Shown here in pieces: positions 2,953 to 27,608 of a stretch of 44,866 bases of DNA. The position numbers and the translations under genes were made by a program. The stretch is from a virus (lineage: Duplodnaviria > Heunggongvirae > Uroviricota > Caudoviricetes): positions 1-44,866 of IMG/VR virus record IMGVR_UViG_2579778842_000011; one strand, written 5' to 3'. A model generated the notes under the pieces. That model saw nothing but the letters and a program-made list of their open reading frames with translations, was not told the origin of the DNA and did not search any database. Each line of letters begins with the position of its first letter. The stretch's first letter is position 1.

Positions 2953-3020
2953 CCCGTCACCGTCACAACCACATCACACCTGTTTTCACTTTTATCTTCT
3001 GTCTTCAGAGGTATCCCATT

Positions 3021-3242: not shown

Positions 3243-3260
3243 GTCAGTAAGGGCATTCTG

Positions 3261-3905: not shown

Positions 3906-3954
3906 CTCGTCATCGTTAAACTATCATTCACCGATTTTCTGTAAGGATTTTATC

Positions 3955-4323: not shown

Positions 4324-4411
4324 CTCTCCAGAATAGCCTTCTGCTACGGCCTGGTGTTTTCACCACGCCACTTTCCCATTTTTATATCTGCATATCAGGA
4401 AAATCTTCAGT

Positions 4412-4789: not shown

Positions 4790-5274
4790 AACTGGCCCTG
4801 ACGCTGGAAGCCGACAGCATTAACGTGCAGGCACTGAACATGGGGCGAATTGTCGCTGACGTCGATGGTGTTAATCTCACTGAACTGATTAACAAGGTCG
4901 CTGAAAACGGTTATTCACTCCGCGTGGTGGAGGAATCCGACCAACAGTCAACCTGCACACTACCACCGTTTGCAACCCTTGCCGGCATACGCTGCAGTAC
5001 CGCACATATCACGGAAAAGGATAACGCCTGGCTGTACTCGCTGTCACACCAGACCAGTGACTTCGGTGAATCAGAATGGATTCATTTCACAGGTAGCGGA
5101 TATCTGTTACGTACCGATGCGTGGTCATATCCGGTTCTGCGGCTCAAGCGCCTGGGGCTGTCAAAAACGTTCCGTCGTCTGGTTGTCACACTCATCCAAC
5201 GTTATGGCGTCAGTCTCATTCATCTGGATGCCAGCGCTGAATGTCTGCCGGACCTGCCCACTTTCGACTGGTAA
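4786..5274 (+). CDS. YeeW-like protein
   Basis: 162 aa ORF whose ATGA start overlaps the toxin stop, as in yeeV-yeeW arrangements. Confidence 0.55.
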   Translation: MKLALTLEADSINVQALNMGRIVADVDGVNLTELINKVAENGYSLRVVEESDQQSTCTLPPFATLAGIRCSTAHITEKDNAWLYSLSHQTSDFGESEWIHFTGSGYLLRTDAWSYPVLRLKRLGLSKTFRRLVVTLIQRYGVSLIHLDASAECLPDLPTFDW

Positions 5275-5285
5275 CCAGGAACAAC

Positions 5286-5483
5286 ATGAAATCATTAACC
5301 ACGGAAACCGCACTGGATATTCTGATTGCGTGGCTACAGGACAATATCGACTGCGAATCGGGAATTATCTTTGACAACGATGAGGATAAAACGGATTCGG
5401 CAGCACTGCTGCCCTGCATTGAACAGGCCAGGGAGGATATCCGTACCCTGCGCCAGTTGCAGTTTCTGCAACAGAACCAGTGA
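5286..5483 (+). CDS. Small hypothetical protein (DUF957-like?)
   Basis: ATG at 5286 preceded by CAGGA; 65 aa; position after yeeW-like gene. Confidence 0.4.
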   Translation: MKSLTTETALDILIAWLQDNIDCESGIIFDNDEDKTDSAALLPCIEQAREDIRTLRQLQFLQQNQ

Positions 5484-5567
5484 GTCTTACTCACCAGACT
5501 TCATTCCACTGACGCCAGCCTGAACAGGGCTGGCGTTTTCATTTATCTGCAAAAAGGAATATCGATT

Positions 5568-6410
5568 ATGTCTGATATCACAGCCTCCCGTCCGGAAGTG
5601 GTCAACGGGCATACGGACGTTATCTGCTCAACCAGTATCCGCCACATTCTGACTGTACGAAAGAGTACGCTGCTGCAAATCGACACACTTATCCGGCAAC
5701 TGGCTGAAATCTCAGCAATGACAGAAAGTATTGGCGGTAAAACCGCACTGGACTGGGCGATGAAACAGGATTTTCGCTGTGGCTGCTGGCTGATGGAAAA
5801 ACCGGAAGCAGCAATGAAAGCCATCACCCGCAATCTCGATCGAGAAATCTGGCGTGACCTGATGCAACGTTCCGGGATGCTGTCATTAATGGATGCGCAG
5901 GCCCGTGATACATGGTACCGGTCACTGGAGTACGATAATTTTCCGGAAATCAGCGAAGCGAACATCCTGAGCACATTTGAACAACTGCACCAGAATAAGG
6001 ATGAGGTGTTTGAGCGAGGGGTGATCAACGTCTTCAGAGGGTTGAGCTGGAATTACAAAACCAACTCCCCCTGTAAATTTGGTAATAAAATTATCGTCAA
6101 CAATCTGGTGAGATGGGACCGGTGGGGATTTCATCTGAACAGCGGGCAACAGGCAGATCGACTTGCCGACCTGGAAAGAATGCTGCACCTGTTCAGCGGC
6201 AAACCAATCCCCGACAACCGGGGAAACATCACCCTTCGTCTGGATGATCACATTCAGTCTGTTCAGGGTAAAGAGAGCTATGAAGATGAGATGTTCAGCA
6301 TCAGATACTTTAAGAAGGGCTCCGCACACATCACGTTCAGGAAACCAGAACTGGTTGACAGACTGAATGATATTATCGCAAAACACTATCCTGACATGCT
6401 GGCAGTATAG
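5568..6410 (+). CDS. Hypothetical protein, last gene of the island before serX
   Basis: 280 aa ORF with AAGGA RBS; no recognisable catalytic motif. Confidence 0.45.
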   Translation: MSDITASRPEVVNGHTDVICSTSIRHILTVRKSTLLQIDTLIRQLAEISAMTESIGGKTALDWAMKQDFRCGCWLMEKPEAAMKAITRNLDREIWRDLMQRSGMLSLMDAQARDTWYRSLEYDNFPEISEANILSTFEQLHQNKDEVFERGVINVFRGLSWNYKTNSPCKFGNKIIVNNLVRWDRWGFHLNSGQQADRLADLERMLHLFSGKPIPDNRGNITLRLDDHIQSVQGKESYEDEMFSIRYFKKGSAHITFRKPELVDRLNDIIAKHYPDMLAV

Positions 6411-6518
6411 CTTTGCCAGTATGCTCAAAGATCGGAAATTGTCCGATAAGATATGATCGCGGGGCATATAAACCGGTTTCAGATGGCATACCCGATGGCA
6501 TACTGTCCGGAAGGATAA

Positions 6519-6559: not shown

Positions 6560-6647
6560 TGGCGGTGAGGGGGGGATTCGAACCCCCGATACGTTGCCGT
6601 ATACACACTTTCCAGGCGTGCTCCTTCAGCCACTCGGACACCTCACC
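6560..6647 (-). tRNA. serX: tRNA-Ser (anticodon GGA)
   Basis: Reverse complement reads GGTGAGGTGTCCGAGTGG...CCTGGAAAG...GGTTCGAATCCCCCCCTCACCGCCA: 88 nt, long variable arm, GGA anticodon loop, CCA end; adjacent to ghrA as at the serX locus. Confidence 0.9.
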
Positions 6648-6841: not shown

Positions 6842-7819
<978 letters not shown>

Positions 7820-7858
7820 TAAAGCATCAGGATTCCTGCTATCCTTGGCGGGAATTGA

Positions 7859-8299
<441 letters not shown>

Positions 8300-11175: not shown

Positions 11176-11622
11176 GGGGATTGTATTTTATTTTTCAACC
11201 CCTCACATTTATCTCTTATATATGTATTTATAACAGAGATATGTTAAAATGTTATTCAGATGTTATCAGACGTGTTAAATGTGTTAAACCGCAGCACGAA
11301 TTGCTAAAGCGGAGAGCACGAATTAACCAAATTGATGTATATTCAATCAATTTAGAAAAAGGCATAGCACTTTTTGCTAAAGCGGTGAGCATTAATTGAG
11401 CTATGAATTGTAAAGATTTGTTACAAGATTTTCTCTCAGATCCAAATCTTCACAAACATATAACAATTTAACAGAAGGATAACAAATGAAAGGAAATCGG
11501 TAAATTTTCACTTTCAATACAAATATTATACCACATTTTTCTCGAATTGTCAATTATAGCACCGATCCTACACAGTGTCAACAAAGGATTTTCAAACCTA
11601 CACTAGCCCTACACTATGAAAA

Positions 11623-11808
11623 TTGCCCCTGAATTTTTGCCCCTGAACCAAAATCCCCTAGATTCCACATCCAATTTTTGCCCCTGAAACCCACTATTTT
11701 TGCCCCTGAAATTCTGGGAAACAGTGATTTTGCCCCTCATTTTTGCCCCTGAAATGCCAATAATTGCCCCTGAAAATCTAATTTTTGCCCCTGAAATTTG
11801 CCCCTGAA
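11623..11808 (+). repeat. Iteron-like array: 9 direct copies of TTGCCCCTGAA (8 exact, 1 variant)
   Basis: Copies at 11623, 11637, 11678, 11700, 11730 (variant TTGCCCCTCAT), 11743, 11764, 11785, 11798; all same orientation, irregular 13-41 bp spacing, within a 1.4 kb region lacking ORFs of 60 aa or more. Confidence 0.75.
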
Positions 11809-12436
11809 AAGGATTTGTGAGAAAAACTCTTTATAAAACATTAACTTAGTGAGTGGCAAAACGGGGAATCGGGCGTGCATAGATATTATATAACACATTC
11901 GCTACGCTCATGTGTAAAACCAAAAACAACAAATAACCAAAAAGATATTAGGAGGGCGTAGCCCGACTGCGCGAAGCGCTAACCAATTACTTCTAGTAAC
12001 ACTAATTTAAACTAGATGATACTAGATGGTCTTAGAAGGAATTAACTAGTTTGCTCGCTCGCTTCGCTCACTCTCAAACGTCTGCGACGCCACTGCGTGG
12101 CATCGAGAATCACTTCTGAAAGGATTTTCTTGAAAGGGATTTTAAACTAGTTACTAACTGATTCTAGAAAGATAGTAATAATCACTTTGAAGATAATAGT
12201 AGTTAACTGGTTACTAGATGATTCTAGATCACTTTAATGATCATGAAAGGTATTGGTATCCCTTCGGGATTGCAACCTTCGGTTGCTAAATTGCTTCCTG
12301 ATTATAATTTCTCCAAAAGAAAGATTCTTATATTCTAAAGATACTTCTTCGTTTTGATGATGATTTAATCAAAATCTATGAAGGAGGCGAAGCCGACTGA
12401 ATACCAATTCCTTTCAAATTAGACAAAAATTTCTCG

Positions 12437-14324: not shown

Positions 14325-14332
14325 TAATTTTT

Positions 14333-14356
14333 GCCCCTGAATTTCAGGGGCTTTTT
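14333..14356 (+). terminator. Rho-independent terminator built from the iteron motif
   Basis: GCCCCTGAA-T-TTCAGGGGC perfect inverted repeat followed by TTTTT. Confidence 0.75.
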
Positions 14357-14395: not shown

Positions 14396-14598
14396 TTCGA
14401 AAGAATCAATAGGTTAGAGATGAGCGCAGTTTTGCGCCGATTGATTCAAGTTTGAATTTCTCGAAAGAATCAACCACTTAGATAGATACGCTGAACTTTA
14501 AGCACATCCCCTCAGTTTTGAGGGCATCTATAGATCAGTCCAAATCTCTGGACTCATCGGAAGAATCAATGACTTATAGATGAGCGCAGTTTTGCGCG
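14396..14598. repeat. Three dispersed copies of an approximately 40-bp unit with embedded small hairpins
   Basis: Units start 14396, 14459, 14556 (TCGAAAGAATCAA...TTAGAGATGAGCGCAGTTTTGCGC); hairpins GCGCA-GTTTT-GCGC, CCCTCA-GTTT-TGAGGG, AGTCCA..TGGACT, ATTCAA-GT-TTGAAT. Confidence 0.6.
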
Positions 14599-14603
14599 GA
14601 TAT

Positions 14604-14899: not shown

Positions 14900-15502
14900 T
14901 TATTTAGAGGACTTACATTTTATCGGAAAAAGTTCTCCATCGTCAACCGACATAAAGAACTCTGCCTTAATCCCGTACTTCTTCAACCGTGAATAGTATG
15001 TACCCCGACTTATATCAACCTTGCGAAGCACTTCAAAGAACCCTTTAGGATCGTTGTAATAGTGGCTATAACGCACGTTAGCGAGTTCAACGAATAGTTC
15101 CCTTGTATCACCATAGCCTTTCTTGAAAGCCTCGTTACGATAGCGTGTAATTGCGTGATTCAATCTCTTCTGTTTCAACACTTCCCTGATCGGTGTCCAC
15201 TGCAACCGATAGATCGGACCGTCATCAATGCGATAATAACGCTTGATATCAAAATCAAACCAATCTCGGACTCTCCGAAACTCTGTATGTGATGTTCTAT
15301 GCTTCTTAAAGAAGTTGTGAACGTCTGTATAACCATTATCGCGGTAAAACTCTATTAAAATCTCTTTCGCTTCCTCACGACTAAAGCCAGATGTAGTGTA
15401 GTCGGTTTTTAAATGCTTATGCTTAACTGGCAAACGATATTCATGATCGGTACAAGACAAGGCTAATTCTAATTCATCTCTTTGTTGCTGATTAATTAGC
15501 AT
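14900..15502 (-). CDS. Hypothetical protein with C-terminal HTH-like motif shared with the two small paralogs
   Basis: 200 aa; AAAGGGGG RBS; C-terminal DISRGTYYSRLKKYGIK. Confidence 0.45.
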   Translation of the reverse strand: MLINQQQRDELELALSCTDHEYRLPVKHKHLKTDYTTSGFSREEAKEILIEFYRDNGYTDVHNFFKKHRTSHTEFRRVRDWFDFDIKRYYRIDDGPIYRLQWTPIREVLKQKRLNHAITRYRNEAFKKGYGDTRELFVELANVRYSHYYNDPKGFFEVLRKVDISRGTYYSRLKKYGIKAEFFMSVDDGELFPIKCKSSK

Positions 15503-15587
15503 ACAACCCCCTTTAATTAATACCCGTATTTATCAAAATATCAACAATTTAATAAATACCTTCATATTTCGTAATGAGGGTAATTAC

Positions 15588-17492
15588 ATGAAACTGATTT
15601 CAAATAAGGCCAAATTAAAAAAGATTCTCAGAAATATCTCTGCTGCAATTCGCCCACCTAAAGCCATGAAGCCTAGCGAATGGGTAGAGGCTAATGTAGT
15701 TGCAACCGATGGTGTTAAAGCCGGATCGCTAATTAAATTGCATCCCTTCCAACGTGGAATGATGGACGCGATCACCGAAGACCGTAGAAAAATTGTGTTT
15801 AAATGTTCGGCACAGTTGGGTAAGACCATGATTCTTAACGGAATTATCTTCCATCGGATCGCGAGTAACCCTACTAATATTGGGGTCTTGCAAAGTAACG
15901 TTAGGGAACTAAATTCTTGGATCGCTGGTAAGGTGAAGCCAGTATTAGAGGCAACGCCAGAATTAAAAGCGATGATCACCGACAAATCAGACCGTAATGC
16001 TGTTAACAACTCATCGATTATTCAGCTTCGTAATGGATCATTCATGTATTTCATGTCGCTGAACAGTCCATCACACTTGCGCGGTAAGACACTCCCTTTG
16101 ATTATTCTTGATGAAGTTGATGCGGCTGATGAATCAGACGAAGGGAACCCGATCCAGCTAGCGGAACAACGCGCAACCACTTTCGGGGAAGATGCAAGGA
16201 TCGTAATTGCTTCCACTCCAACCGCTCGTGATGGGGCGATTAACCAACAATGGGAACTCTCGGATAAGAGAAAATATCATGTCGTTTGCCAGCATTGCGG
16301 ACACAAGCACGTAATGGAATGGAGTAACGTACATTTCGATTGGCATACGATTAACGGTAAATCATTACCCAACCCAGATACAGCCGTTTACCGTTGCCCT
16401 GAATGTGAAACCGATTGGACCGAAGGGGATCGCCTCCGTGCTGTTGCTCAGGGAGAATGGGTCGCCACCGAACCAAATGCGGAAGTAATCGGTTTTCATG
16501 CTAACCGCCTTATGTCTCCGTTTAGTTCTATCCGTGCGTGTGTGGTGGACTTTGCTGATAGCTACGCGAATATGTCCCTGGCAACGTTCTACAATACAGT
16601 CCTCGGTGAAACCTTCGATGATCTTAACGAAGATCGCACAGCCGACGAACTGGAAACGCTGAAAACTGATATTAGCCTAGACAATATTCCTGATGATGTA
16701 CTGGCTCTGGTAGGTGGAGTTGACCAGCAAAAAGACCGTCTGGAATCTACCTTGCTGGGTATTTCTCGTAAAGGGCTATGCGTAGTTGATCACCGATCAT
16801 TCTATGATGTGAACTGCGAACGCCACGAATCACCAGCATATAACCAGCTTTACAACTTCCTGAAAGCTAAATTCTATACCCGATCCGGTGAACGAATCCC
16901 GATGTTATCTGCTTTCGTGGACTCATCGAACGGACGAGCTACAAACGTGATCTATCGATTCTGTAGTCGGTGGCAAAATCTAACCGCCATTAAAGGCGCA
17001 AGCAATGTTGATGCACCAATCCTTCCGGTAAAAGACACAAGAACGGGTGGTTTTACCCTTAAAATTCTGGGCGTAAACAACCTTAAAACGATGATCCGTG
17101 AAATGATTAACCGGAACTTGAGAGATGGCGATCCTCACACTGTCTTCCAGATTGGTGACGTTCCTGATGACTATTGCGAGCAATTGCTTTCTGAACAGTT
17201 GAAACGGCAGGGTAATACCACACGTTGGGTAAAAGTTGGACAAACACGAAACGAAGCGTTGGACTGCCTGGCTTATTCCTATGCTGCTTCTCGTCATGTA
17301 CTCAATAAAATGTCATGGGAAAAACTCGAAGCCATCAAAGATAGTTTGAACCGTGAACCAGAAGAATCCGTAGAAGCTCCTAAATCGCAATCTAACGAGC
17401 AAATCGAAGAAACTAAGCCAATCACACGACCACAACGTAAAAACATCGCCAGACGCCCAAATAGAGGCCGTAGCTGGGTAACATCGTTCTAA
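15588..17492 (+). CDS. Terminase large subunit (lambda GpA family)
   Basis: 634 aa; Walker-type segments; C-terminal WVKVGQTRNEALDCLAYSYAA resembles recalled lambda gpA RNEALDCFVYALAA. Confidence 0.85.
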   Translation: MKLISNKAKLKKILRNISAAIRPPKAMKPSEWVEANVVATDGVKAGSLIKLHPFQRGMMDAITEDRRKIVFKCSAQLGKTMILNGIIFHRIASNPTNIGVLQSNVRELNSWIAGKVKPVLEATPELKAMITDKSDRNAVNNSSIIQLRNGSFMYFMSLNSPSHLRGKTLPLIILDEVDAADESDEGNPIQLAEQRATTFGEDARIVIASTPTARDGAINQQWELSDKRKYHVVCQHCGHKHVMEWSNVHFDWHTINGKSLPNPDTAVYRCPECETDWTEGDRLRAVAQGEWVATEPNAEVIGFHANRLMSPFSSIRACVVDFADSYANMSLATFYNTVLGETFDDLNEDRTADELETLKTDISLDNIPDDVLALVGGVDQQKDRLESTLLGISRKGLCVVDHRSFYDVNCERHESPAYNQLYNFLKAKFYTRSGERIPMLSAFVDSSNGRATNVIYRFCSRWQNLTAIKGASNVDAPILPVKDTRTGGFTLKILGVNNLKTMIREMINRNLRDGDPHTVFQIGDVPDDYCEQLLSEQLKRQGNTTRWVKVGQTRNEALDCLAYSYAASRHVLNKMSWEKLEAIKDSLNREPEESVEAPKSQSNEQIEETKPITRPQRKNIARRPNRGRSWVTSF

Positions 17493-17564
17493 TAACTCGC
17501 CGTCCTTCGGGGCGGCTTACTCCTAAATATTGTTAATCCAATAACAATTAAATAAGGGGTAATT

Positions 17565-18059
17565 ATGAGTTTAGAACTAATTCCCTTAGTAATTCGTAAA
17601 GGCGAAAAAATCACGCTGGCGAATGAAGAGGGTGTAACAATTCAGGTAGGAAATAGTAAAGGTATCATCTATCAGGTTGATGATACTCCGGCTAATCACG
17701 AGATTAAAACCTTAGATTTTTCCGAAGGTAAATATACCATCGTAACAACTTTGGAAGATGAACTGGTATCAATGCAGGAATTAACTGTTTTGCCAGTATT
17801 CGCCAAAATCTCCAAAAAAGAATATCTGCGGGAAACTATCGCCTTAATCGAGCAAGTTATTTTCGCCCGTTTATCTGGGGACGAAGCCGCATTATCTGCA
17901 ATGACCGTGAAAGGGAATACTTTCGCCTATGAGTCATTGGGTGTTCTCCAGCAATTGAAGACTGATTATGAACGTCAGTTATCTAAATTAATTCAAGCCG
18001 AACGACGTAAACAGGGAATTAGCCCGATTAAAAATATTAAAGTACGTCTTACGCGATAA
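17565..18059 (+). CDS. Hypothetical head-assembly protein between terminase and portal (gpW-position analog)
   Basis: 164 aa; AAGGGGTAA RBS; positional inference only. Confidence 0.35.
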   Translation: MSLELIPLVIRKGEKITLANEEGVTIQVGNSKGIIYQVDDTPANHEIKTLDFSEGKYTIVTTLEDELVSMQELTVLPVFAKISKKEYLRETIALIEQVIFARLSGDEAALSAMTVKGNTFAYESLGVLQQLKTDYERQLSKLIQAERRKQGISPIKNIKVRLTR

Positions 18060-18069
18060 GGGGTAAATC

Positions 18070-19581
18070 ATGTTTAATCTTTTTCGACGCAAAAAGGCGG
18101 TAGAAACTCCAGTTAAAACTAATCACCGCCAGCAACAACCAAAAATTTTCATCGACAAATCTATAGAAAAATACCAGAGATCTTTGGCGACTCGTAGTTT
18201 AGGTCTGGTGGGTGATCGTATTGATGGATCACTTCAACAAGACACCATTACAGGAACCTTCAATAAGGCTCTCAAATCGAACGGTAAGCGCCTTTATGAT
18301 CAGGGTCGTACTCTGGCCTTAAACACTTCCGTAGGCAGTCGCTACACGCAATACATAACCGATATGGTGGTAGCTACTGGCCTAGATCCGAAGCCGTCAG
18401 TTGTTAAATCAAACGGCAAACTTGATAGCGCACTGAATAAGCAGATCGAGAATGCTTTCTGGAAGTGGGCGCAGAATGCTAAACGCTTCTCTCGTAACGG
18501 TCGTTTTAACTTCCGTGAACTGCTGGTGATGGCTGAACGTGAACGCGTTATGGGTGGTGAGTGCTTCATAGTTTTAACCAAAGAAAACAATGAGTTAAAT
18601 GTTTCTATCCTGTCTGCTGATAAGTGCGACTGGTCGCTAAACCGTGAAGTAAGCAAAGACCGTGCGATATATCAAGGTGTGGAGTATGACGTAGAGACGA
18701 TGAAGCCCGTAGCATACTGGTTTCGTAAAATCAACCTACTGACTCAGACCTACACTGGTGATAACTATCGCGTAGATGCATCGCAAGTATGCCATTATTA
18801 TCAACCACTTACAGCCGAATCCCTGCGTGGTGTGACTGACTTCCTGCCAGTGATTAAGGATATCGCACATCAAGACGCATTCCGCGAAACTGCGATCGTC
18901 CAGAAACGTATTGCAGCTAGCTCGATGGGCTTTATCGAACGTCCGAAAGATTCTGGTGACGATTTTGATACTGGTGAAGAGGATGAACAATATCAAGCGC
19001 CGGAAGTAGTACAGGATTTTGCACCAGGTACTATTCAGGAATTACCGGAAGGGGCAACGATCAAGAGCATCCAGGCGACGCAAAGCGGTGATGACTTTAA
19101 CAGCTTCAATGATGCGATGTTTACTAGCGTATCAATGGGTTTAGGCGTGTTTAAACAGGGCTTAACGGGAGATTGTTCACAGATCAACTACTCAGCCGCA
19201 CGTTTTGGTGAACTACTTCAACGTAACCGCGTTAAAGCACTTCAAAACAAATTAATTGAAACAGTGGTATTGCCAATTTTCGAAGCGTATCTACGCCATT
19301 ATTCCGCGCGTGGTATTGTTCCGATTCGTATTACTGCAATTCCACATATTATCGATAATACAACTATTATTCGTCCGCGTTTCGAGTCTGTCGATGTTAT
19401 TAAAGACGTAAACGCTGATATTGCTTTAATTGATAAAGGACTTAAATCACGTACTGCCGTTATTCTTGAACGTGGTGATGATCCTGAAAAAGTATTCTCA
19501 GAGATTCAAGCCGAAAAGAGCGCACTAAATATTATCGTTAATGGCGAGGGTGAAGAAAAAAATTCCCCAGCCGATCCCTAA
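18070..19581 (+). CDS. Portal protein (lambda gpB-like)
   Basis: 503 aa; position after terminase; VFKQGLTGDCSQINYSAARF region resembles recalled lambda B. Confidence 0.8.
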   Translation: MFNLFRRKKAVETPVKTNHRQQQPKIFIDKSIEKYQRSLATRSLGLVGDRIDGSLQQDTITGTFNKALKSNGKRLYDQGRTLALNTSVGSRYTQYITDMVVATGLDPKPSVVKSNGKLDSALNKQIENAFWKWAQNAKRFSRNGRFNFRELLVMAERERVMGGECFIVLTKENNELNVSILSADKCDWSLNREVSKDRAIYQGVEYDVETMKPVAYWFRKINLLTQTYTGDNYRVDASQVCHYYQPLTAESLRGVTDFLPVIKDIAHQDAFRETAIVQKRIAASSMGFIERPKDSGDDFDTGEEDEQYQAPEVVQDFAPGTIQELPEGATIKSIQATQSGDDFNSFNDAMFTSVSMGLGVFKQGLTGDCSQINYSAARFGELLQRNRVKALQNKLIETVVLPIFEAYLRHYSARGIVPIRITAIPHIIDNTTIIRPRFESVDVIKDVNADIALIDKGLKSRTAVILERGDDPEKVFSEIQAEKSALNIIVNGEGEEKNSPADP

Positions 19582-19626
19582 TAACCAACGGGGGCGCAAT
19601 GCCCCCAATTAATTAAAGGTGATTAA

Positions 19627-21630
19627 ATGCTTAAATTTCGCCGCGATCTTAACGGTTACGGTGGAGTTATTAACGAAGGGCATAACGATCAATACGAATT
19701 TGAAATTGCTTTCTCAAGTACACAGCCTTATCAGCGCCAATTTTGGGATGAGCAAAATCAAGAAATGGTGGTATTAGATGAAATTCTGGTACATACACCG
19801 GAAGCGGTTGATCTGTCTCGTCTGAATAATAACGCTCCGTTGCTGTTCAATCATAATTTCGATAATCATATTGGTGTCGTTTGTAACGCTCGAATCGATG
19901 CGGATAACGTAGGTCGTGCTCTGGTTAAATTCTCTAAGCATGGCACTTTGGCTAATGATATTCGCAATAAAGTCATTGAAGGTACGATGGAAAAAATATC
20001 GGTCGGCTATGACATTAAAGAGTATCACATCGACTACGCTAAATCGCAACTCATTGTTTCTAAATGGATTCCGCACGAAATTTCGTGGGTCACGGTCCCG
20101 GCGGACGATTCGGTCGGTTTAAATCGCTCTCTAAATACTATCACAGTTAATTTGGGGGCTAAACGCGATATGACTAAAGAACAAATCGAAGAAATCAAAG
20201 AAGAACAAGAATCCGCTCAGGTTGAAGAAACTCCGGTAGAAGAAAATAAAGAACCGGAAGTTGAAGAAACTCAAGAGCGCCAAGTTGAAGAGAATAAAGA
20301 AGATGAAAATCTCGAAGACGGAAAAGACGCTAAACATCCTGAAAGTGTTGATGATGATAGTTCAACTGTTCGGGAAGAAGAAGAAGTAAAAGAAGAACGT
20401 GAAGCCGCTCCGGTTGAAGAAGAAAAAATCGAAGAAGTGGCTGAACGTTCCGAAGAAGACGAATTAGAAATTCGCGAAATTGCACGCGAACTAAATATTG
20501 ATGACTCTGAATTAGCACGCGCATTGGCAATTAAAGACATGACGCCGGAAGCATTCCGCACTAAGGCGCTAAATAACATTACCAATGTTCAACGTAATAA
20601 CGAACAAATTAAGGACTCTAAAATGGAAAAAACTTTCGATCTTAATAACGTAATCCGCTCCCTGGTAGATGGCGACGTGCTCGGCGCTAACGAAGCTGAA
20701 TATTCCGCAATGGCTGCTACTGCAACTATGCAGCGTGGTCGTGCTGCTCGCGGTGGCTCTGTATTCGTTCCGGCTGCTGCTATGCGTGCTGCTTCTGCTG
20801 GTAACACCAAAGCCGACCTGACCGCTATCACTGACGAAAAACTGATGACTGAATCCTACATCGAAATGCTGATGCCGGAATCTGTTCTGGGTCGTCTGGG
20901 TGTGACTGTTTACAGTGGCTTGAACTCCCCGACCGCTATTCCAAAAATGACTAAATCCAGCGTTGACGCTTTCGGCTTCGTTGATGAAAACGGTGCTGCA
21001 CCGGAAAGCAAAGCTGAATTTGCGAACGTGAAACTGTCTCCTAAGACGTTTGCTGGTGGGAACCCGATCAGCAGAGCGAGCCTAAAAACCGTACCCGGCA
21101 TCGCTTCCCTGATCACTGATCACATTAACAAAGCTGTTCGCATCAAACTGGAACAACTGATTCTGTCTGATAAAGCTAACGACCGTGGTCCGGCTGGTCT
21201 GGTTAAGCAACTGGTAGACGCTAACCGCGTTACCAAGAAAGCTGCTTTCTCTTACAAAGACTTCCTGAAAGAAATTGCAGCACTGACCGACGCTGGCGTT
21301 CCTGCTCAGGCGATCAAGTTTGCGATGAGCGGTGCAACTGCTGCTGAACTGGAATCTACCCTGAAAGATAACGGCGTTTCCGGTTATATCATCGAAAACG
21401 GCAAACTGGCTGGTTACGAAGTAGTTACTTCTGGCGTTATTCCGGCAGACCACATCGTTCTGGGTGACTTCTCCGGTATTACCATCGGTGAGTGGGGCGG
21501 TCTGGAACTGGATATGGATCTAACTACATACCGTGACCGTGGTGCGGTAGTGCCTCGTATCTTTGTAGATTTGGACTACGTTGTAGCACAGCCGGAAGCT
21601 CTGAAAGTTCTGAAAATTGGCGAAGAGTGA
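19627..21630 (+). CDS. Prohead protease - acidic linker/scaffold - major capsid protein fusion (HK97-like)
   Basis: 667 aa; N-terminal ~170 aa with prohead-protease-like motifs (LLFNHNFDNHIGVV, ISWVTVPADDS); E/K-rich linker; C-terminal ~330 aa capsid-like; ends at UGA 21628-21630. Confidence 0.7.
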   Translation: MLKFRRDLNGYGGVINEGHNDQYEFEIAFSSTQPYQRQFWDEQNQEMVVLDEILVHTPEAVDLSRLNNNAPLLFNHNFDNHIGVVCNARIDADNVGRALVKFSKHGTLANDIRNKVIEGTMEKISVGYDIKEYHIDYAKSQLIVSKWIPHEISWVTVPADDSVGLNRSLNTITVNLGAKRDMTKEQIEEIKEEQESAQVEETPVEENKEPEVEETQERQVEENKEDENLEDGKDAKHPESVDDDSSTVREEEEVKEEREAAPVEEEKIEEVAERSEEDELEIREIARELNIDDSELARALAIKDMTPEAFRTKALNNITNVQRNNEQIKDSKMEKTFDLNNVIRSLVDGDVLGANEAEYSAMAATATMQRGRAARGGSVFVPAAAMRAASAGNTKADLTAITDEKLMTESYIEMLMPESVLGRLGVTVYSGLNSPTAIPKMTKSSVDAFGFVDENGAAPESKAEFANVKLSPKTFAGGNPISRASLKTVPGIASLITDHINKAVRIKLEQLILSDKANDRGPAGLVKQLVDANRVTKKAAFSYKDFLKEIAALTDAGVPAQAIKFAMSGATAAELESTLKDNGVSGYIIENGKLAGYEVVTSGVIPADHIVLGDFSGITIGEWGGLELDMDLTTYRDRGAVVPRIFVDLDYVVAQPEALKVLKIGEE

Positions 21631-21717
21631 AATAACGAAGAATTGCCGGAAGAAATTCCGGTAGTTACGGCGAAAGCCACAGCTAAAAAGGTGGGACGTC
21701 CACCGAAAGCAAAATAA
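21631..21717 (+). other. In-frame 28-codon extension downstream of the capsid UGA stop (putative readthrough product)
   Basis: NNEELPEEIPVVTAKATAKKVGRPPKAK then TAA; shares NEELP and VVTAKATAK with the extension after the major tail gene. Confidence 0.45.
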
Positions 21718-21723
21718 TAATTA

Positions 21724-21749
21724 GCCCTGCCTAACGGTGGGGCTTTTTT
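21724..21749 (+). terminator. Rho-independent terminator after the capsid gene
   Basis: GCCCTGCC-TAAC-GGTGGGGC (two G-U pairs) followed by TTTTTT. Confidence 0.7.
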
Positions 21750-21780
21750 GTATGTAAATACTCCATAAAGGGGGGTAACT

Positions 21781-22071
21781 ATGTTCAAATTATCAGAATC
21801 ACAATTATCAAGAATGTTTAAAAGTGCTCCTGTATTTTCGGTGGAAGGTGGTAAATCAATTCGTGCTTATCATGAAATTACTACTACCGACGAACAAGGG
21901 GTAATGACAGAGACAGAATTTTTATTTTGTCGTGAGGGAGACTTAAAGCAGGGTGATATTGTCATTGTAGAAAATCAGCGTTTCAAAGTTCAATACGTTA
22001 AGCGCAATGGTGACAATACAACTGATTGCTTTATCACTCTGGCAGGGGGTACACATGCTCGCTACCGTTAA
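21781..22071 (+). CDS. Putative head completion / head-tail adaptor protein
   Basis: 96 aa; AAGGGGGG RBS; position after capsid gene. Confidence 0.4.
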   Translation: MFKLSESQLSRMFKSAPVFSVEGGKSIRAYHEITTTDEQGVMTETEFLFCREGDLKQGDIVIVENQRFKVQYVKRNGDNTTDCFITLAGGTHARYR

Positions 22072-22477
22072 TAACATGCCGAGACTGAAAATCAAACGCG
22101 CCTTGCAAGATATTATCGAACAAGATTTAGGTCTGGCTTTAAACGTAGAACAAACTCAGCAAGGCTTTAGTGATGATGTGGTTTGTTGGATCACCGGAAT
22201 GAATGAGACTTACACTAGGGTCCGTGGTGGTAATGCAATGCAAGCTGAATGCGTTATCGAAATGCAATTATATTCTCAGATTCATGAAACCAAAATTCAT
22301 GAGGGTATTTGCCAGATAATCCAGATTCAGCCGGATAACCCACGTTTTAAAGATTTGGGCTTCTCTATTTCAGATATCACTCCAGTAGCTTCTAATACCG
22401 ATTATGACGATGATTCTAGTGATGGGGGTATCGTTGGGACACTTAGCCTTAAATTTTCTTATCTAGCGCGTTTTTAA
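22055..22477 (+). CDS. Putative head-tail joining protein
   Basis: ORF 22007..22477; ATG 22055 has GGGGG 5 nt upstream; overlaps end of previous gene; start uncertain (alternative 22076). Confidence 0.35.
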   Translation: MLATVNNMPRLKIKRALQDIIEQDLGLALNVEQTQQGFSDDVVCWITGMNETYTRVRGGNAMQAECVIEMQLYSQIHETKIHEGICQIIQIQPDNPRFKDLGFSISDITPVASNTDYDDDSSDGGIVGTLSLKFSYLARF

Positions 22478-22486
22478 GGGGTAATA

Positions 22487-23320
22487 ATGAATATTACACA
22501 AGATAACTTAGATATTTTCACTGGATCACATGTTGAAGTGTCGATCTCTAACCAGATAGACAATCAGGTCGACTTTTTCGATCCTAGCTTTAGTTCTATG
22601 GAGAACATCGCAGCATTCCCTACGCTAACCGAATCCACAGAGATAGAAACTCTGGAAGAGTACGATCAGGACGCTACGGGGAAACTTGCTGGTTATCGTA
22701 GACTGGAACCGACAACACTCACATTAAACCGTGTTCTTGACGATGAACATCAAGCAATGTTGATGAAAGCGGTAGAGGATAAAACACCTTTACGCTTCCG
22801 TATGTTCTATGTTGTGAACTCTGGCTATAGTGCTGCTAACACAGGGTACTTTTGTATATTCGATGCTTACGTCACATCACATAAAACCCGTGGTAGTGAT
22901 AACAAAGCTGTAACACTGGAATTTAAACTTGAACCAGATGGCGGGATTTTGGCAAGGGGTATTGCTACCGAAGGTAAGATCTTACGTCAGGGTGATTTTG
23001 GTATTGGTGCTGGTGTACATCCATTTACAGGGGGTATAGACGACACAGCATTAGCCGGAAACCGTTTCGTAACTTACAAGGGAACTGCTAGCGGCAATCC
23101 ATATTCAACCGACACAGCATTAATTCACCTTCAAGCTAATGAGCATGGCGCATGGCAATTAACCTGTAATACTTCTGGCGCACCGCGTTTACGTGTCCGA
23201 AATATTCAGGAAAACGGTCGTTCTGAATGGATCAAGGTATATTCCACCAATGAGAAACCGACACCTAGCGAAATTGGCGCAGTGGCTAAGACTGACCGGA
23301 TCGATTTCGGCGAATACTAA
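22487..23320 (+). CDS. Putative neck/tail-associated protein with fiber-like C-terminal motif
   Basis: 277 aa; C-terminal NEKPTPSEIGAVAKTD resembles DKPTPGEIGAYTKAE in the downstream fiber. Confidence 0.4.
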   Translation: MNITQDNLDIFTGSHVEVSISNQIDNQVDFFDPSFSSMENIAAFPTLTESTEIETLEEYDQDATGKLAGYRRLEPTTLTLNRVLDDEHQAMLMKAVEDKTPLRFRMFYVVNSGYSAANTGYFCIFDAYVTSHKTRGSDNKAVTLEFKLEPDGGILARGIATEGKILRQGDFGIGAGVHPFTGGIDDTALAGNRFVTYKGTASGNPYSTDTALIHLQANEHGAWQLTCNTSGAPRLRVRNIQENGRSEWIKVYSTNEKPTPSEIGAVAKTDRIDFGEY

Positions 23321-23399
23321 GGATTCTCCTACCTAAATAAAACATGAACGTTGGGAGGTTAACGCCTCCCTTATTCCTGTTTTATAGTGAGGTGATTCG

Positions 23400-26300
23400 A
23401 TGCAGTCGATCCAATTTAAACGCACACAAACGGCTGGTAAAAAACCAACGCCGGAACAATTATCACAGGGTGAAATCGCCTTACAACTGGCGGACCATGT
23501 GATTTACACCAAAGATAAAAATAATAACGTAGTCCAAATTAGTGTTTCTCCAGAAAAACACGCTGAACTGAATACGAAAGTAGACACCAACAAGGTCAAT
23601 ACAGATAAAGTCATTTCAGCAAATAAAACCGAAGCCGCTAATAATCTGGCTAGTGCTAAAGCTGAACTTAATCAGACTATCACTTCTACCCGTGATGCTC
23701 TCAATGCTTCAATCACTGCTGGCGACACCGCAGCCAACAAACGAATTGATGCTTTGACTACCACAGTAGGTAACAATAAAACCGAAGCGGCTAACGCTCT
23801 GGCGGCTGCTAAGACTGAACTGAATCAGACTATTACTTCAACCCGCGATACTATCAACGCAACAATTAACAAGAACAAGACAGATATTAATGCACGAGTT
23901 GATCAGACTAATACCAACGTTACTAACTTAACGAATAATATCGCAGCAAATAAATCAGCAATAGAAAAGACGGTAGCGGATAATAAGAAAGATGCGGACA
24001 CGAAGATCACCAATCTTACTAGTACGGTCTCTGCGAATAAGACATCCATTGAAAGAACTGTTGCAAATAACAAGGCCAGTGCCGATGCCGCAATTGCCGC
24101 AGCTAATCAGCGAATTGATTCTATTGAAGGTAGTGCCGATGCTGCTTACATCAAGAAGAATACCAACACTTACCATCACGGCTATCTGTTAACCAAAACA
24201 GCTAACTATTTGGAAGACCAGACAGCGAGAGATCTTAACTACTTTGGTGCTTTCCGTACCAATGGTCAAGATGGACTCATGGATCTAACTCTTAACGTTC
24301 CTCACTCTGCCGGCAAAGCGCACGGTCGCGGATTTACTTTCCGTTATGCGTCTGGTGGATCTCGTGTTGAAACCTATGGTTTTGATAGAGAAGGACAGAA
24401 GAACTTTAGCTATAAGATGTATCACGAAGGTGATAAGCCGACTCCTGGCGAAATCGGTGCATACACTAAAGCAGAAGTTGACAAGATGTTTGTTAAAAAC
24501 GTCACTATGTCTGTTCCTAATTCTAGCGAAAACGTATCTGCATATTTCAAATTGGCAACCGCAACAATTCCACAAAACGGGCGTAGTGTGTTTTTCCGTA
24601 TTCATGGTGGTAATGGTTACAACGTTACGGCATATGACCAAGTTGATGTAGTAGAAATTCTTCTCCGTAGTGGTAACGATAGACCTAAAGGACTTAACGT
24701 AGTTGCATATCGTCGAAATACCGTCAAAGATTTTGATGTATTTGCCGTCAATACATCCGGTGATAACTATGACATTTATGTGAAATATCAGCGTTACACT
24801 GATAACGTTATTGTTGAATTTGGTAAAAGTGTTTATGTTAATCTGACTGTTCACGATACACCGGAAGCCACGTTAATTAAACCTTCTGTTGGTGTTATTG
24901 ATGGGCGCATCATTACTCTATTCAATACAGAAAACAAACGAGGTGTGTTGAGTTTTGACGATAACCCACAAAATAGTTATGATATTGTTCACTTGAGTAA
25001 TGATAGGGGTACTGGACGAAAATATATTCGTAAATTCCGTAGCAACTATAACGAAATGATCTGGCATGAGACGGTTCAAGGTTCTACTTATCGACTCGCC
25101 ACGGGTAGTACAGATGCCCAGGAGATTCTATCCGTTGAATCTAGTAGCTCTATTGCTGGGACTCATAAAGGTAATATTCTTTCTGGTCGAATGATGTTGG
25201 GTGGCGGTAGTAATGTTATTACCTTGCGGCGTCCTGCTGGTCAATCCAACCATATTACGTTTCAAGATAATCGGACTGGATCTATTACCCGTCAAGGGTG
25301 GATCGGTTATGGTAATGCTGATACTAACGTTTTTGAATGGTATAGTGATGTAGGTGGCAGTTCTATTCGTCACCACATCGACGGACAGATCGAACTTGCA
25401 ACCGGTAACACAAAACGCGTTTATACTAACGCTCAATTCATCTCAATGAATAGCGACGCCTACCGTATGCTCTATGGTAATTATGGTGCATTCTGGCGTA
25501 ATGACGGCGTTAAAGTTTATCTTCTTTCTACTGCCGAAAATGATAAATTGGGCGGATGGAATACTTATCGTCCATTCATTTATGATTTAACTTCCGGCAA
25601 CGTTCAATTAGGCGGTGATGGTAACGAAGATGCATTAACGTTAGAACGTGCTTCTCGTGCCGCTCGCTTTAGTAATGACGTTTACATTAAGAAAGGGCAT
25701 TTGACTTTCGACGCTGGGCGATTAAATTCCCGCGATTATTTCCGGTTTAACCATTGGGGTGATAGCAATAACGGTCGCGATAACATCCTACAGATTGAAG
25801 ACAGTCAGGGCGCACATTTTATCACTGAACGTGCTATGGGTACTGGTAACATAACAACACGTTTTAGAGGCTTTGTACGTGTAGAATCTGGTGAAATTGC
25901 ATTTGATGCTAACCGTGGTTCTTCTTCGCAATTTAGTCTCCATACATGGGGTAACGAGCAACGCAAACAGGTTTTTGAATGTAAGGATGCTACAAGTTAT
26001 CACTGGTATACTGAACGTACTCAGGGTGGCACTGGACCTATTCTGTTCTCTATGGCGGGTAGTCTAAACGTTGCTAGCAATATCACAACAACTGGTGCTG
26101 ATATTACGTTTAAACGCGCTGGCAATAAGCACATCTGGTTTAGAGATCCAAACGGTTTAGAGTTGGGCTTGATGTATTGCGATGACGCTGGTGTTATTCG
26201 CTTCCGTGGTGAGAAACAAACCGAAGTCTGGAAATTCGGCGGTAAGATGATTCACCTTGAAACGGGCACTGTATCCGGTGGCGGTAATGGTCTTATTCGT

Positions 26301-26918
26301 GGTAGCGTTGCTGGTGGTAGTTGGGCTAGCTGGCGTGATCGTGCTTCTGGTATTCAGGTCGACTGTCAACAATCAACCGATTCCGCTCATAACGTATGGA
26401 AAGCAACCCATCAAGGTAAATATCATATCGCAGCAATGGGTGTACATGTTCCTAGCGGTACTATCGGTAATGCTATGGTTCAACTTCATGTTCATGATAC
26501 CAACTTTATCTTTAACGCTGCTGGTGATTTTACCGCAGGTCGTAACGGTAGCTTTAACGATGTTTACATTCGCTCTGACTCTCGTCTGAAAATTAACAAG
26601 GAAGAATTACAGGACGGTGCATTAGAGAAAGTAAACTCCTTGAAAGTCTACACCTACGATAAAGTTAAATCTCTTTCTGATGACACGGTAATTAAACGCG
26701 AAGTCGGTATTATTGCTCAGGATCTGGAAGAAGTATTGCCGGAAGCAGTAGGTATTCAATCCACCGAAGATCCAGAAAATCCAGAAGCAATTAAGACGAT
26801 TTCTAACTCCGCTGTTAATGCCTTGATTATTAAAGCTATTCAGGAAATGGACGCCAAATATAAAGCCCAGATCGAAGCATTACAGAAAGAAATTGCCGAA
26901 CTCAAAGCAACTAAATAA
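23400..26918 (+). CDS. Tail fiber protein with C-terminal intramolecular chaperone (peptidase S74-like) domain
   Basis: 1172 aa; repetitive N-terminal Ala/Asn/Thr-rich segment; C-terminal SDSRLKINKEELQDGALEKVNSLKVYTYDK...coiled coil typical of self-cleaving fiber chaperone domains. Confidence 0.75.
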   Translation: MQSIQFKRTQTAGKKPTPEQLSQGEIALQLADHVIYTKDKNNNVVQISVSPEKHAELNTKVDTNKVNTDKVISANKTEAANNLASAKAELNQTITSTRDALNASITAGDTAANKRIDALTTTVGNNKTEAANALAAAKTELNQTITSTRDTINATINKNKTDINARVDQTNTNVTNLTNNIAANKSAIEKTVADNKKDADTKITNLTSTVSANKTSIERTVANNKASADAAIAAANQRIDSIEGSADAAYIKKNTNTYHHGYLLTKTANYLEDQTARDLNYFGAFRTNGQDGLMDLTLNVPHSAGKAHGRGFTFRYASGGSRVETYGFDREGQKNFSYKMYHEGDKPTPGEIGAYTKAEVDKMFVKNVTMSVPNSSENVSAYFKLATATIPQNGRSVFFRIHGGNGYNVTAYDQVDVVEILLRSGNDRPKGLNVVAYRRNTVKDFDVFAVNTSGDNYDIYVKYQRYTDNVIVEFGKSVYVNLTVHDTPEATLIKPSVGVIDGRIITLFNTENKRGVLSFDDNPQNSYDIVHLSNDRGTGRKYIRKFRSNYNEMIWHETVQGSTYRLATGSTDAQEILSVESSSSIAGTHKGNILSGRMMLGGGSNVITLRRPAGQSNHITFQDNRTGSITRQGWIGYGNADTNVFEWYSDVGGSSIRHHIDGQIELATGNTKRVYTNAQFISMNSDAYRMLYGNYGAFWRNDGVKVYLLSTAENDKLGGWNTYRPFIYDLTSGNVQLGGDGNEDALTLERASRAARFSNDVYIKKGHLTFDAGRLNSRDYFRFNHWGDSNNGRDNILQIEDSQGAHFITERAMGTGNITTRFRGFVRVESGEIAFDANRGSSSQFSLHTWGNEQRKQVFECKDATSYHWYTERTQGGTGPILFSMAGSLNVASNITTTGADITFKRAGNKHIWFRDPNGLELGLMYCDDAGVIRFRGEKQTEVWKFGGKMIHLETGTVSGGGNGLIRGSVAGGSWASWRDRASGIQVDCQQSTDSAHNVWKATHQGKYHIAAMGVHVPSGTIGNAMVQLHVHDTNFIFNAAGDFTAGRNGSFNDVYIRSDSRLKINKEELQDGALEKVNSLKVYTYDKVKSLSDDTVIKREVGIIAQDLEEVLPEAVGIQSTEDPENPEAIKTISNSAVNALIIKAIQEMDAKYKAQIEALQKEIAELKATK

Positions 26919-26973
26919 TAAAAGTCGGGGGACTAGTTCCCCCGTAATAACAATTTAATTAAGGGGTAATTCT

Positions 26974-27450
26974 ATGTCTCAGCAATTTAAAGATATTTTT
27001 ACTGGTGGTCTGGTAAGTCTGTTCTATCACGCCGATACCACTAACACCGCTCTCAACCATGAGGGCTATGAAGAAATTAAAGAGTGCGCCGGATTCCCGG
27101 AAACTGGTATCGAACGCGGTACTGTAGAAGTTAAATCCTTCTCTTCTCAGTATAACCGTAAACTGGTAGGGAAGCTGAACGTTCCTGATCTGACTCTGAC
27201 CGTTAACTACATCCCAGGCGATGCGGTACATGAAAAACTGATCAAAGCTGCCGAAGATGGTACTCGAATCCAGATTAAAGTAGAGTATTACGTATCAGCG
27301 GATAAGCAGACTGGTATTCGCACCGCTTTCAACGGCTTCATTTCTAAAGTTGCTATGAACGGTGGCGATGAAGAAGTGGTAACTAAAGAGTTTACCTTTG
27401 CAGTGGACGGCAAACCGCTGAAACAGGAAATCTTCAATACTGCCGGATGA
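26974..27450 (+). CDS. Major tail (tube) protein
   Basis: 158 aa; AAGGGGTAA RBS; position before chaperone pair and tape measure; strong terminator after it; ends at UGA 27448-27450. Confidence 0.55.
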   Translation: MSQQFKDIFTGGLVSLFYHADTTNTALNHEGYEEIKECAGFPETGIERGTVEVKSFSSQYNRKLVGKLNVPDLTLTVNYIPGDAVHEKLIKAAEDGTRIQIKVEYYVSADKQTGIRTAFNGFISKVAMNGGDEEVVTKEFTFAVDGKPLKQEIFNTAG

Positions 27451-27576
27451 ACTAACGAAGAACTTCCTTTAATAGAACCGGAACCACAGCCGGAACATGA
27501 AGCGGTGGTGATTCCAGAATTAGAGGTTGTTACGGCGAAAGCCACAGCTAAACGAAGCCGCAAGGCTAAAGATTAA
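27451..27576 (+). other. In-frame 41-codon extension downstream of the major tail UGA stop (putative readthrough product)
   Basis: TNEELPLIEPEPQPEHEAVVIPELEVVTAKATAKRSRKAKD then TAA; 24-nt block GTTACGGCGAAAGCCACAGCTAAA identical to that after the capsid gene. Confidence 0.45.
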
Positions 27577-27582
27577 TTATAA

Positions 27583-27608
27583 GCCCTGCCTTAATGGTGG
27601 GGCTTTTT
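27583..27608 (+). terminator. Rho-independent terminator after the major tail gene
   Basis: GCCCTGCC-TTAAT-GGTGGGGC followed by TTTTT; same stem sequence as the terminator at 21724. Confidence 0.7.

Follow-up and report, generated by a model that had tools for sequence, protein, structure and literature searches.

The locus described here raises the question why, in a tailed prophage of Escherichia coli, the genes for the major capsid protein and the tail tube protein, the two structural proteins that are needed in the highest copy numbers, both stop at a UGA followed by A and then continue in the same reading frame into extensions that share a peptide. The prophage is contained in IMG/VR record IMGVR_UViG_2579778842_000011 (positions 1 to 44,866), and this whole stretch of 44,866 nucleotides (nt) is referred to as the window. 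A first-pass annotation had read the two extensions as a common C-terminal tag that is added to a fraction of the subunits. The feature is real and conserved across relatives, and we consider it probable, at roughly 0.6 and on basis of the sequence comparisons given below, that programmed low-level readthrough of the UGA produces C-terminally extended capsid and tail tube subunits.

Re-reading of the sequence confirmed the architecture that had been reported earlier, including the coordinates of the capsid and tail copies, the UGA-A stops, the in-frame extensions and the hairpin terminators (Table 1). The capsid gene ends with GAG TGA A and is followed by 28 in-frame codons, NNEELPEEIPVVTAKATAKKVGRPPKAK, up to a TAA at 21715-21717; the encoded peptide comprises an acidic linker, the core VTAKATAK (21664-21687) and the basic tail KVGRPPKAK. 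The tail tube gene ends with GGA TGA A and is followed by 41 in-frame codons (TNEELPLIEPEPQPEHEAVVIPELEVVTAKATAKRSRKAKD, terminating VVTAKATAKRSRKAKD) up to a TAA at 27574-27576, and its extension is made up of a spacer (27451-27460), a predicted stem-loop domain (27461-27531), the core VTAKATAK (27529-27552) and the basic tail RSRKAKD. The 10-nt spacer is semi-conserved between both copies (A[AC]T AAC/TTC/CCT G[AT]A G), and the 24-mer GTTACGGCGAAAGCCACAGCTAAA is exactly the same in the capsid and tail copies and occurs nowhere else in the window, with 0 matches expected by chance. The stop codon of each extension lies 5 nt 5' of the terminator stem (8 nt in one variant), and both terminators are the two top-scoring terminator hairpins on the + strand within 15000-34000. 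The terminator motif AGCCCTGCC was also encountered 3' of ordinary TAA-ending open reading frames (ORFs) of 132 and 180 amino acids (aa) in some related loci (IMG/VR and E. coli), and this type of terminator is thus reused beyond the two tagged genes.

The stops of the two genes are exceptional within the window. Among the 24 late genes, 21 end in TAA, many of them as TAA-T or as a double stop, and 3 in TGA, and the combination TGA-A is restricted to the capsid and tail tube genes; it is present in all tagged tail genes. Highly expressed bacterial genes prefer UAA, particularly UAA-U, as a strong stop. In E. coli, the tryptophan transfer RNA (tRNA-Trp) misreads UGA most readily when the next base is A (PMC5289835, citing Engelberg-Kulka 1981), and the competition between Trp-tRNA-Trp and RF2 at the UGA sets the readthrough level (PMC10570021).

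The extension itself shows several marks of a translated sequence. The 33 unique extension DNAs that were collected contain 0 stops in the in-frame sense reading. The other five frames have 11-120 stops each (71 and 120 in the +1 and +2 frames) and are open in at most 24 of the 33 variants. The linkers measure 11, 18 or 27 codons in capsid genes and 21, 24 or 26 codons in tail genes, the basic tails are 7-10 codons long and one locus has a 1-codon deletion in the core (VTEKSTKK); all length changes are whole codons, with at least seven events seen and a naive chance of ~5e-4 for seven. Codon-usage log-odds per codon, for which genuine coding windows of the same phage served as the reference (mean +0.36, standard deviation 0.19), amounted to +0.39 in frame 0 of the capsid extension versus -0.95 and -0.79 in the other frames, and to +0.27 versus -1.17 and -1.05 for the tail extension. 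All 40 distinct peptides combine an acidic linker with a basic tail. More explicitly, the linkers are rich in Glu/Asp and Pro (net charge -3 to -9, 15-28% Pro); next come V[T/K]AKATAK, or a sequence close to it, and a Lys/Arg-rich tail, with core and tail together at +4 to +7. This charge pattern is kept although linkers and tails come as several sequence-dissimilar cassettes, as exemplified by the tails KVGRPPKAK, KQRKTKE, KERKTKAK, RGRKPKE, RSRKAKD and RGRKAKN. In-frame translation of the extension past a leaky UGA, as had been proposed, is in this way supported by the invariant TGA-A, the whole-codon insertions and deletions, the codon usage in frame 0 and the charge pattern. The final stop also speaks for it, as its distance of 5 nt to the terminator stem matches the gap of 3-7 nt that separates the ordinary stop of untagged tail tube alleles from their terminator.

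The tag was not recovered in a fused state. A profile of 12 tag peptides that was run against 5.8 billion proteins to find the tag joined to a larger protein returned solely a 33-aa ORF-calling artefact, and the 120 best capsid homologues all measure 665-669 aa, i.e. they are without a fused tag. That a sense codon was never found in place of the stop is as expected if the tag is permitted on a minority of the subunits only. Antisense genes that overlap the modules (21576-21788 and 27288-27563, both on the - strand) were considered as well and rejected, since the antisense frames are open in just 20-24 of the 33 variants.

To describe the distribution, two samples were used that had been chosen independently of the tag sequence: (a) 18 E. 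coli genome loci retrieved by similarity of the capsid region, which together with the window make 19, and (b) 68 IMG/VR loci retrieved by homology of the capsid protein, of which 36 belong to the family and 32 to an outgroup (≤42% identity). Of 5426 complete E. coli genomes, 55 contain the prophage family, which also occurs in many IMG/VR contigs; source names on the capsid homologue matches include E. albertii, Salmonella and one doubtful Veillonella metagenome-assembled genome. In sample (b), TGA-A, an open extension of 28-45 codons and a terminator were found at 36/36 capsid genes of the family, including four members with a capsid allele that is just 37% identical to that of the window. 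None of the 32 outgroup capsid genes has TGA-A or such an extension, and their stops are TAA (28), TAG (1) and TGA-G/T (3); the difference in TGA-A between family and outgroup corresponds to a naive Fisher p of 4e-20, the lineages not being independent. In sample (a), TGA-A with an open extension was found at 18/19 capsid genes. The expectation that related phages keep the segment in frame thus holds for both samples apart from one locus (L020), which is treated below.

Among deposited phages, a megablast search with the capsid region gave no match. The best match at the protein level was Escherichia phage DCP80 (45% identity), the capsid gene of which ends in TAA-A and lacks such an extension. 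In the DCP80 locus (L224, ~7810-7880) the TAA-ended capsid gene is followed by a separate 21-codon ORF with its own start codon, MSLGAEALDAAPVKKSKSASG, that has a faintly similar acidic-then-basic layout, and a terminator comes next; the DCP80 record, which bears the label of a Straboviridae genome of 141 kb, nevertheless starts with this lambda-like head module. A scan of genome contigs with the capsid protein gave no match, and a scan with a degenerate core pattern gave no copy of the module among the matches listed. Some family copies carry insertions: an IS2 at the start of the capsid gene (L019, 3838-5066), a GIY-YIG nuclease gene 5' of the fibre gene (L229, 9775-11019), an extra ORF between the portal and capsid genes (L228, 4852-5874) and an IS3-family element within the fibre gene (L223, 12408-13636). 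Several of these insertion-bearing copies are probably defective.

The tail copy is less widespread than the capsid copy. In the E. coli sample, TGA-A and the extension at the tail tube gene were present in 6/6 loci in which a gp38-like gene comes next and in 0/12 loci without it (p = 5e-5). The 12 loci that lack the gp38 gene all have a different tail tube allele with a TAA-T stop, its own terminator 3-7 nt further on and no extension. The idea of a tag shared by head and tail therefore stands in part: the capsid tag extends over the whole family, but the tail tag is confined to the sub-lineage in which the gp38-like adhesin follows. A requirement of the capsid tag for the tail tag was rejected, as the capsid tag is intact in 11 of the 12 genomes without a tail tag, the remaining one being L020; apart from this locus the capsid tag is present in both groups, and it is thus independent of the tail tag.

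In the mechanism that we propose, where the occurrence of readthrough, the inserted residue, the surface location and the stimulation by a stem-loop are all what we infer, the majority of the ribosomes would terminate at UGA-A and yield the ordinary subunit of the capsid or tail tube. The remaining minority would insert an amino acid, most likely Trp, by competition of the host tRNA-Trp with RF2, translate 27-45 more codons and stop a few bases short of the intrinsic terminator. The product would be a minor subunit that ends in a flexible, acidic and Pro-rich linker (-3 to -9), V[T/K]AKATAK and a Lys/Arg-rich tail (+4 to +7). C-terminal additions to HK97-fold capsid proteins and lambda-like tube proteins are displayed on the outside of the virion, and outward-facing C-termini are known from T7 10B, C-terminal fusions to the P22 coat protein and the C-terminal domain of lambda gpV. 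By analogy, the head and, in the phages of the gp38 type, also the tail would bear a small number of polycationic tips. As to the function of the tag we can only guess that it binds weakly to nucleic acid or anionic surface polymers, or that it docks fibres or a partner protein.

The RNA downstream of the stop is predicted to be structured. Relative to dinucleotide shuffles, the folding of the extension RNA yielded z-values of -4.4 (whole capsid extension), -2.1, -3.0 and -3.5. In every capsid variant except one, and in ~9 of 15 tail variants, a predicted helix begins precisely 10 nt downstream of the UGA. This helix closes on the GUU codon with which the core starts, and the whole variable linker thus represents one predicted stem-loop domain. 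The predicted closing helices include AAUUGCCGGAA/UUCCGGUAGUU, AACC.UCUG/CAGA.GGUU, AACUUC/GAAGUU and AACAACC/GGUUGUU, and the core (GGC-GAAA-GCC) and most of the basic tails are predicted to form small hairpins as well. In an RNAalifold analysis of 14 tail variants the closing helix was retained, with 2 of 6 pairs changed on both sides. When arms were swapped between classes as a control, the pairing was almost as good, because the 5' arm is pyrimidine-rich (Leu/Pro codons) and the 3' arm purine-rich (Glu codons). Considering that the pairing is thus largely compositional, we regard the structure of the closing helix as plausible and do not claim it to be proven. A search of Rfam with positions 19000-29000 gave no match at E ≤ 1. 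The predicted stem-loop may be a stimulator of readthrough or part of a structured 3' end; the position of the helix recalls the 3' readthrough stimulators of eukaryotic viruses, and it is equally compatible with the latter.

Several observations weigh against readthrough as the explanation, or restrict what may be concluded from it. In wild E. coli, UGA-A may be read through at a level of no more than about one percent, and an unusually structured RNA is expected of a non-coding 3' element as well. In L020 (NZ_CP122923, ETEC1703; ~6900-6930) the capsid UGA and the extension have been shifted out of frame by the loss of 1 nt; the deletion is located in CAGAAAAAA(G)TTGAC just 5' of the UGA, following an A6 run, and makes the capsid ORF terminate at a TAG within the spacer. 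The cause is either genuine decay or an error in the assembly of the homopolymer. The substitution pattern was derived from same-length pairs only and is therefore biased towards similar cassettes. For the capsid extension the mean pairwise differences per site at codon positions 1/2/3 were 0.042/0.042/0.064, against 0.056/0.047/0.175 in the 5' flank and 0.067/0.037/0.115 in the 3' flank; for the tail extension they were 0.030/0.029/0.052, against 0.145/0.136/0.261 in the 5' flank, where the third-position excess is weaker, and 0.080/0.063/0.201 in the 3' flank. The substitutions in the extension are thus nearly flat over the codon positions, with a weak third-position excess only, and the DNA of extension and terminator is less diverged than either flanking gene. 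Moreover, the core tolerates non-synonymous change, as seen in VMAKAPAK, VTEKSTAK, VTAKATVK, VTVKATAK and VITAKATAK, all from the tag-independent samples.

Given the small third-position bias and a DNA that is more conserved than its flanks, selection on the exact amino acid sequence looks weak, and a constraint at the level of RNA or DNA, or recombinational homogenisation, acts on the extension too. It had been argued previously that the two copies differ by synonymous changes in NEELP and that this points to selection on the peptide. The changes exist (TTG/CTT and CCG/CCT), but there are just two and they are not representative of the wider substitution pattern. The conclusion drawn from them is not borne out, as the codon-position profile is nearly flat and the DNA surpasses its flanks in conservation; the comparison of third positions among relatives that had been suggested gave no support for purifying selection at the peptide level. 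The breakpoints of mosaicism fall exactly at the module and capsid alleles that are 37% identical share a near-identical extension, and recombinational homogenisation explains part of the conservation of the extension DNA.

The readthrough proposal can be taken one step further, by assuming that UGA-A, the 10-nt spacer and the stem-loop constitute a dedicated signal that sets the dose of a polycationic surface tag shared by head and tail, and that the tail copy is co-inherited with the long fibre module of the gp38 type because the tag docks or regulates the fibres or mediates the first contact with anionic cell-surface polymers. We put this more specific form forward tentatively and consider it doubtful.

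Readthrough could also be real and the peptide incidental. A translating ribosome would then melt the structured 3' region and occlude the terminator stem from the stop 5 nt away, and translation would modulate termination or the stability of the 3' end of the messenger RNA and with it the ratio between capsid or tube and downstream expression. The flat codon-position profile agrees with a segment that must stay open rather than one that must keep its sequence, the RNA between UGA and terminator is strongly structured according to prediction, and the extension stop keeps its constant distance to the terminator stem. This spacing is ordinary gene packing, however, since the untagged tail tube alleles likewise stop directly before a terminator, at a distance that matches that of the extensions. 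The acidic-linker/basic-tail pattern moreover persists over unrelated cassettes, the codon usage of the extension is typical of coding sequence and readthrough at the percent level would barely alter the efficiency of a terminator, which makes an incidental peptide unlikely.

Quite unlikely, too, is an untranslated cassette consisting of a structured 3' region and a terminator, duplicated from the capsid to the tail 3' end, in which the open frame is a by-product and which might act as a stabiliser of the messenger RNA, a small RNA derived from the 3' end or a recombination linker. A cassette of this kind would account for a conservation of the DNA that exceeds that of the flanking genes, with a 24-nt core that is nearly invariant even at synonymous sites, for the three successive predicted hairpins in the extension, GNRA-type loops included, and for the mosaic breakpoints at the start of the module and the near-identical terminators. 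It leaves unexplained that the length changes, at least seven, are all multiples of three, that the in-frame sense reading is the sole one that is always open in the 33 variants, that TGA-A is invariable in a phage that otherwise uses TAA and that the codon usage is coding-like in frame 0 alone; Rfam has no match for it either. Considering the evident constraint on the frame, the element is not purely non-coding, although its terminator part is genuine.

Decoding of the UGA as selenocysteine, with the downstream hairpin as a bacterial selenocysteine insertion sequence (SECIS), has little to recommend it beyond a stem-loop that begins ~10 nt after the UGA, close to the spacing of the minimal E. 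coli SECIS (roughly 11 nt). The hairpins differ completely in sequence, size and apical loop between the variant classes (a GAAA tetraloop versus a branched domain of 60-70 nt), and with apical structures that are unrelated there is no common loop for the binding of SelB; there is no Rfam match at E ≤ 1, and a redox-active residue in a disordered structural linker would be without rationale. We therefore consider it very improbable. A recent nonsense mutation or decaying gene end, by which longer genes were truncated by chance, could be read from the frameshift just 5' of the UGA in L020, but it is effectively refuted by a TGA-A that is found in every lineage sampled, with capsid alleles of 37-100% identity and seven different preceding codons, and by the lack of any relative with a sense codon at the UGA position.

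The closest parallel to the readthrough proposed here is the minor coat protein A1 of phage Qbeta, which results from UGA readthrough of the coat cistron at ~5% (PMC7026636). Both cases involve an E. coli host and a UGA stop, and they would have in common a C-terminal extension on a small fraction of the major capsid subunits, with decoding that is most likely performed by the host tRNA-Trp. Unlike Qbeta, a levivirus with single-stranded RNA, the present element resides in a tailed prophage with double-stranded DNA, a second structural gene (tail tube) bears the same module and each module ends at an intrinsic terminator. In addition, the Qbeta extension is folded, comprises roughly 200 aa and is required for infectivity, whereas the tail of 27-45 aa found here looks disordered.

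In tailed phages, long forms of major capsid or tail proteins that derive from frameshifting are known from the Listeria phages PSA, A118 and A500, Lactobacillus phage A2 and T3/T7 (10B) (PMC5009743). As in PSA, A118, A500 and A2, recoding would take place at the 3' ends of both the major capsid and the tail gene of one siphovirus and would result in minor, extended virion subunits; the extensions of the frameshift phages are displayed on the virion surface. SPP1 gp17.1* is another recoded long form of this kind. In contrast to the +1 or -1 frameshifts of these phages, the extension described here follows the stop immediately and without any change of frame, and where the frameshift extensions are mostly immunoglobulin (Ig)-like or fibronectin type III (FN3)-like domains that differ between head and tail, a short tag of low complexity is shared. 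With 27-45 aa that are first Glu/Pro-rich and then Lys/Arg-rich, it is too short and of too low complexity for an Ig-like or FN3-like domain of ~80-100 aa. The absence of both a frame change and a folded domain places the module outside the frameshift group.

Two further systems are of relevance. Among eukaryotic viruses, 3' stimulators of readthrough include the pseudoknot of murine leukaemia virus (MuLV) and the extended stem-loops of alphaviruses and coltiviruses (PMC13517186). The arrangement of a leaky stop, a spacer of ~8-10 nt and a stable RNA structure is similar to that of MuLV, alphaviruses and coltiviruses, with a structure that is only predicted in our case and shows modest covariation. 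To our knowledge no 3' stimulator has been established for near-cognate readthrough on bacterial ribosomes. Phages are furthermore known to reassign stop codons in late genes, TGA to Trp or TAG to Gln, via phage suppressor tRNAs. A late structural-gene stop that is read as sense would be common to such phages and the present one, but here TGA is not scattered inside genes and long ORFs are intact under table 11; ARAGORN detected no UGA suppressor tRNA (anticodon UCA) in the window. Stop-codon reassignment is therefore not what is observed, given that internal TGAs and a suppressor tRNA are both lacking.

Programmed readthrough is textbook matter for RNA phages and eukaryotic viruses. A prior description of the tag peptide, or of readthrough in structural genes of tailed phages, was not found in the literature; for tailed phages with double-stranded DNA programmed readthrough is essentially undescribed in the literature searched, and their C-terminal capsid and tail variants have so far been known from frameshifting. 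Judged by its sequence, the module is probably a new version of the capsid and tail extensions made by recoding, in this case by UGA readthrough. A natural and conserved UGA-A site in E. coli, possibly accompanied by an RNA stimulator, would permit tests of how bacterial ribosomes bypass stops. If stimulation by the stem-loop is true, this would be the first near-cognate readthrough element on bacterial ribosomes that is stimulated by a 3' structure. The annotation of prophage genomes would miss the resulting minor virion protein species. A shared tag would also show that a peptide can be displayed in few copies on head and tail without a separate decoration gene, which is relevant to phage display and engineering.

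Table 1. Features of the tagged capsid and tail tube genes and of their surroundings, in window coordinates
Feature	Position	Strand	Remarks
Capsid stop, TGA followed by A	21628-21630	+	
Spacer after the capsid UGA, 10 nt, AATAACGAAG	21631-21640	+	
Putative capsid readthrough extension, 28 codons and TAA	21631-21717	+	open in frame in all variants
Predicted 11-bp stem with GAAA loop, AATTGCCGGAA-GAAA-TTCCGGTAGTT	21641-21666	+	encodes acidic linker ELPEEIPVV
Intrinsic terminator after capsid extension, AGCCCTGCC-TAAC-GGTGGGGCT and T run	21723-21750	+	hairpin 21723-21744
Tail stop, TGA followed by A	27448-27450	+	
Putative tail readthrough extension, 41 codons and TAA	27451-27576	+	
Intrinsic terminator after tail extension	27581-27610	+	near-identical to the capsid one; hairpin 27581-27605
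Prohead protease/HK97-fold capsid fusion, 667 aa	19627-21630	+	Pfam Peptidase_S78 and Phage_capsid; PHROG 617 major head protein
Tail tube gene, lambda-like, 158 aa	26974-27450	+	PHROG 158 major tail protein
gp38-like tail fibre adhesin	27594-28130	+	Pfam Gp38_N and PHROG 1121
tRNA-Ser	6560-6647		ARAGORN
Large terminase, lambda-type	15588-17492		
Portal, lambda-type	18070-19581		
Tail-tube paralogue, 277 aa	22487-23320		N-terminal 160 residues 27% identical to tail tube protein
Long tail fibre, T4-like	23400-26918		

The window represents a segment of the E. coli chromosome. Positions 1-6500 share 95% identity with an E. coli island that carries Ag43 and DUF4942-family genes, and the prophage, with ~42% G+C, is situated 3' of the tRNA-Ser gene. 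The protease/capsid fusion is followed in the late region by the head-tail connector genes, and the gp38-like adhesin is followed by the tail chaperones, the tape measure and the distal tail genes; the tail tube gene was listed as immediately 5' of the tail chaperone and tape-measure genes. The scores of the tail tube protein against Pfam Phage_TTP_11 and Phage_TTP_12 are just above and just below the respective cut-offs. The gp38-like ORF as listed would begin within the terminator, and an ATG with a Shine-Dalgarno sequence is found at ~27625. Two tail-tube paralogues are encoded in the window, which are 27% identical across 158 aa; the one at 22487-23320 has an additional C-terminal domain of ~120 aa without a Pfam match and may represent a fibre-bearing ring and not the tube, as it adjoins the long tail fibre gene on the 5' side. 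The T4-like fibre module (23400-28130) is interrupted by the tail tube gene, in the order gp34/gp37-like fibre with an S74 chaperone domain, tail tube gene and gp38-like adhesin. Across the E. coli genomes the fibre block is replaced by head-spike or pyocin-knob types, or by three small ORFs, and the tail tube allele swaps together with it.

Finally, some repeats and a tRNA call were recorded. The linker that joins the protease and capsid domains contains Glu-rich direct repeats at 20199-20425 (AGAAGAAC...GTTGAAGAAAC), a scaffold-like acidic region of the fusion. At 11622-11809 there are at least 7 copies of ATTTTTGCCCCTGAAA with a spacing of ~21 nt, and one more is located at 14327-14349, just 5' of the late region; the array looks like an iteron or regulator-binding array. 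Three non-coding repeats of ~22 nt (TCGAAAGAATCAAT...) lie 5' of the terminase gene at 14397-14601, the outer two of which reach 45 nt (87% identical) with ...GAGCGCAGTTTTGCGC, and these may be packaging or regulatory sites. ARAGORN moreover called a 91-nt tRNA-Gln (anticodon UUG) at 22242-22332 on the - strand, opposite to and within a connector-gene ORF; the call is probably spurious and does not represent a UGA suppressor.

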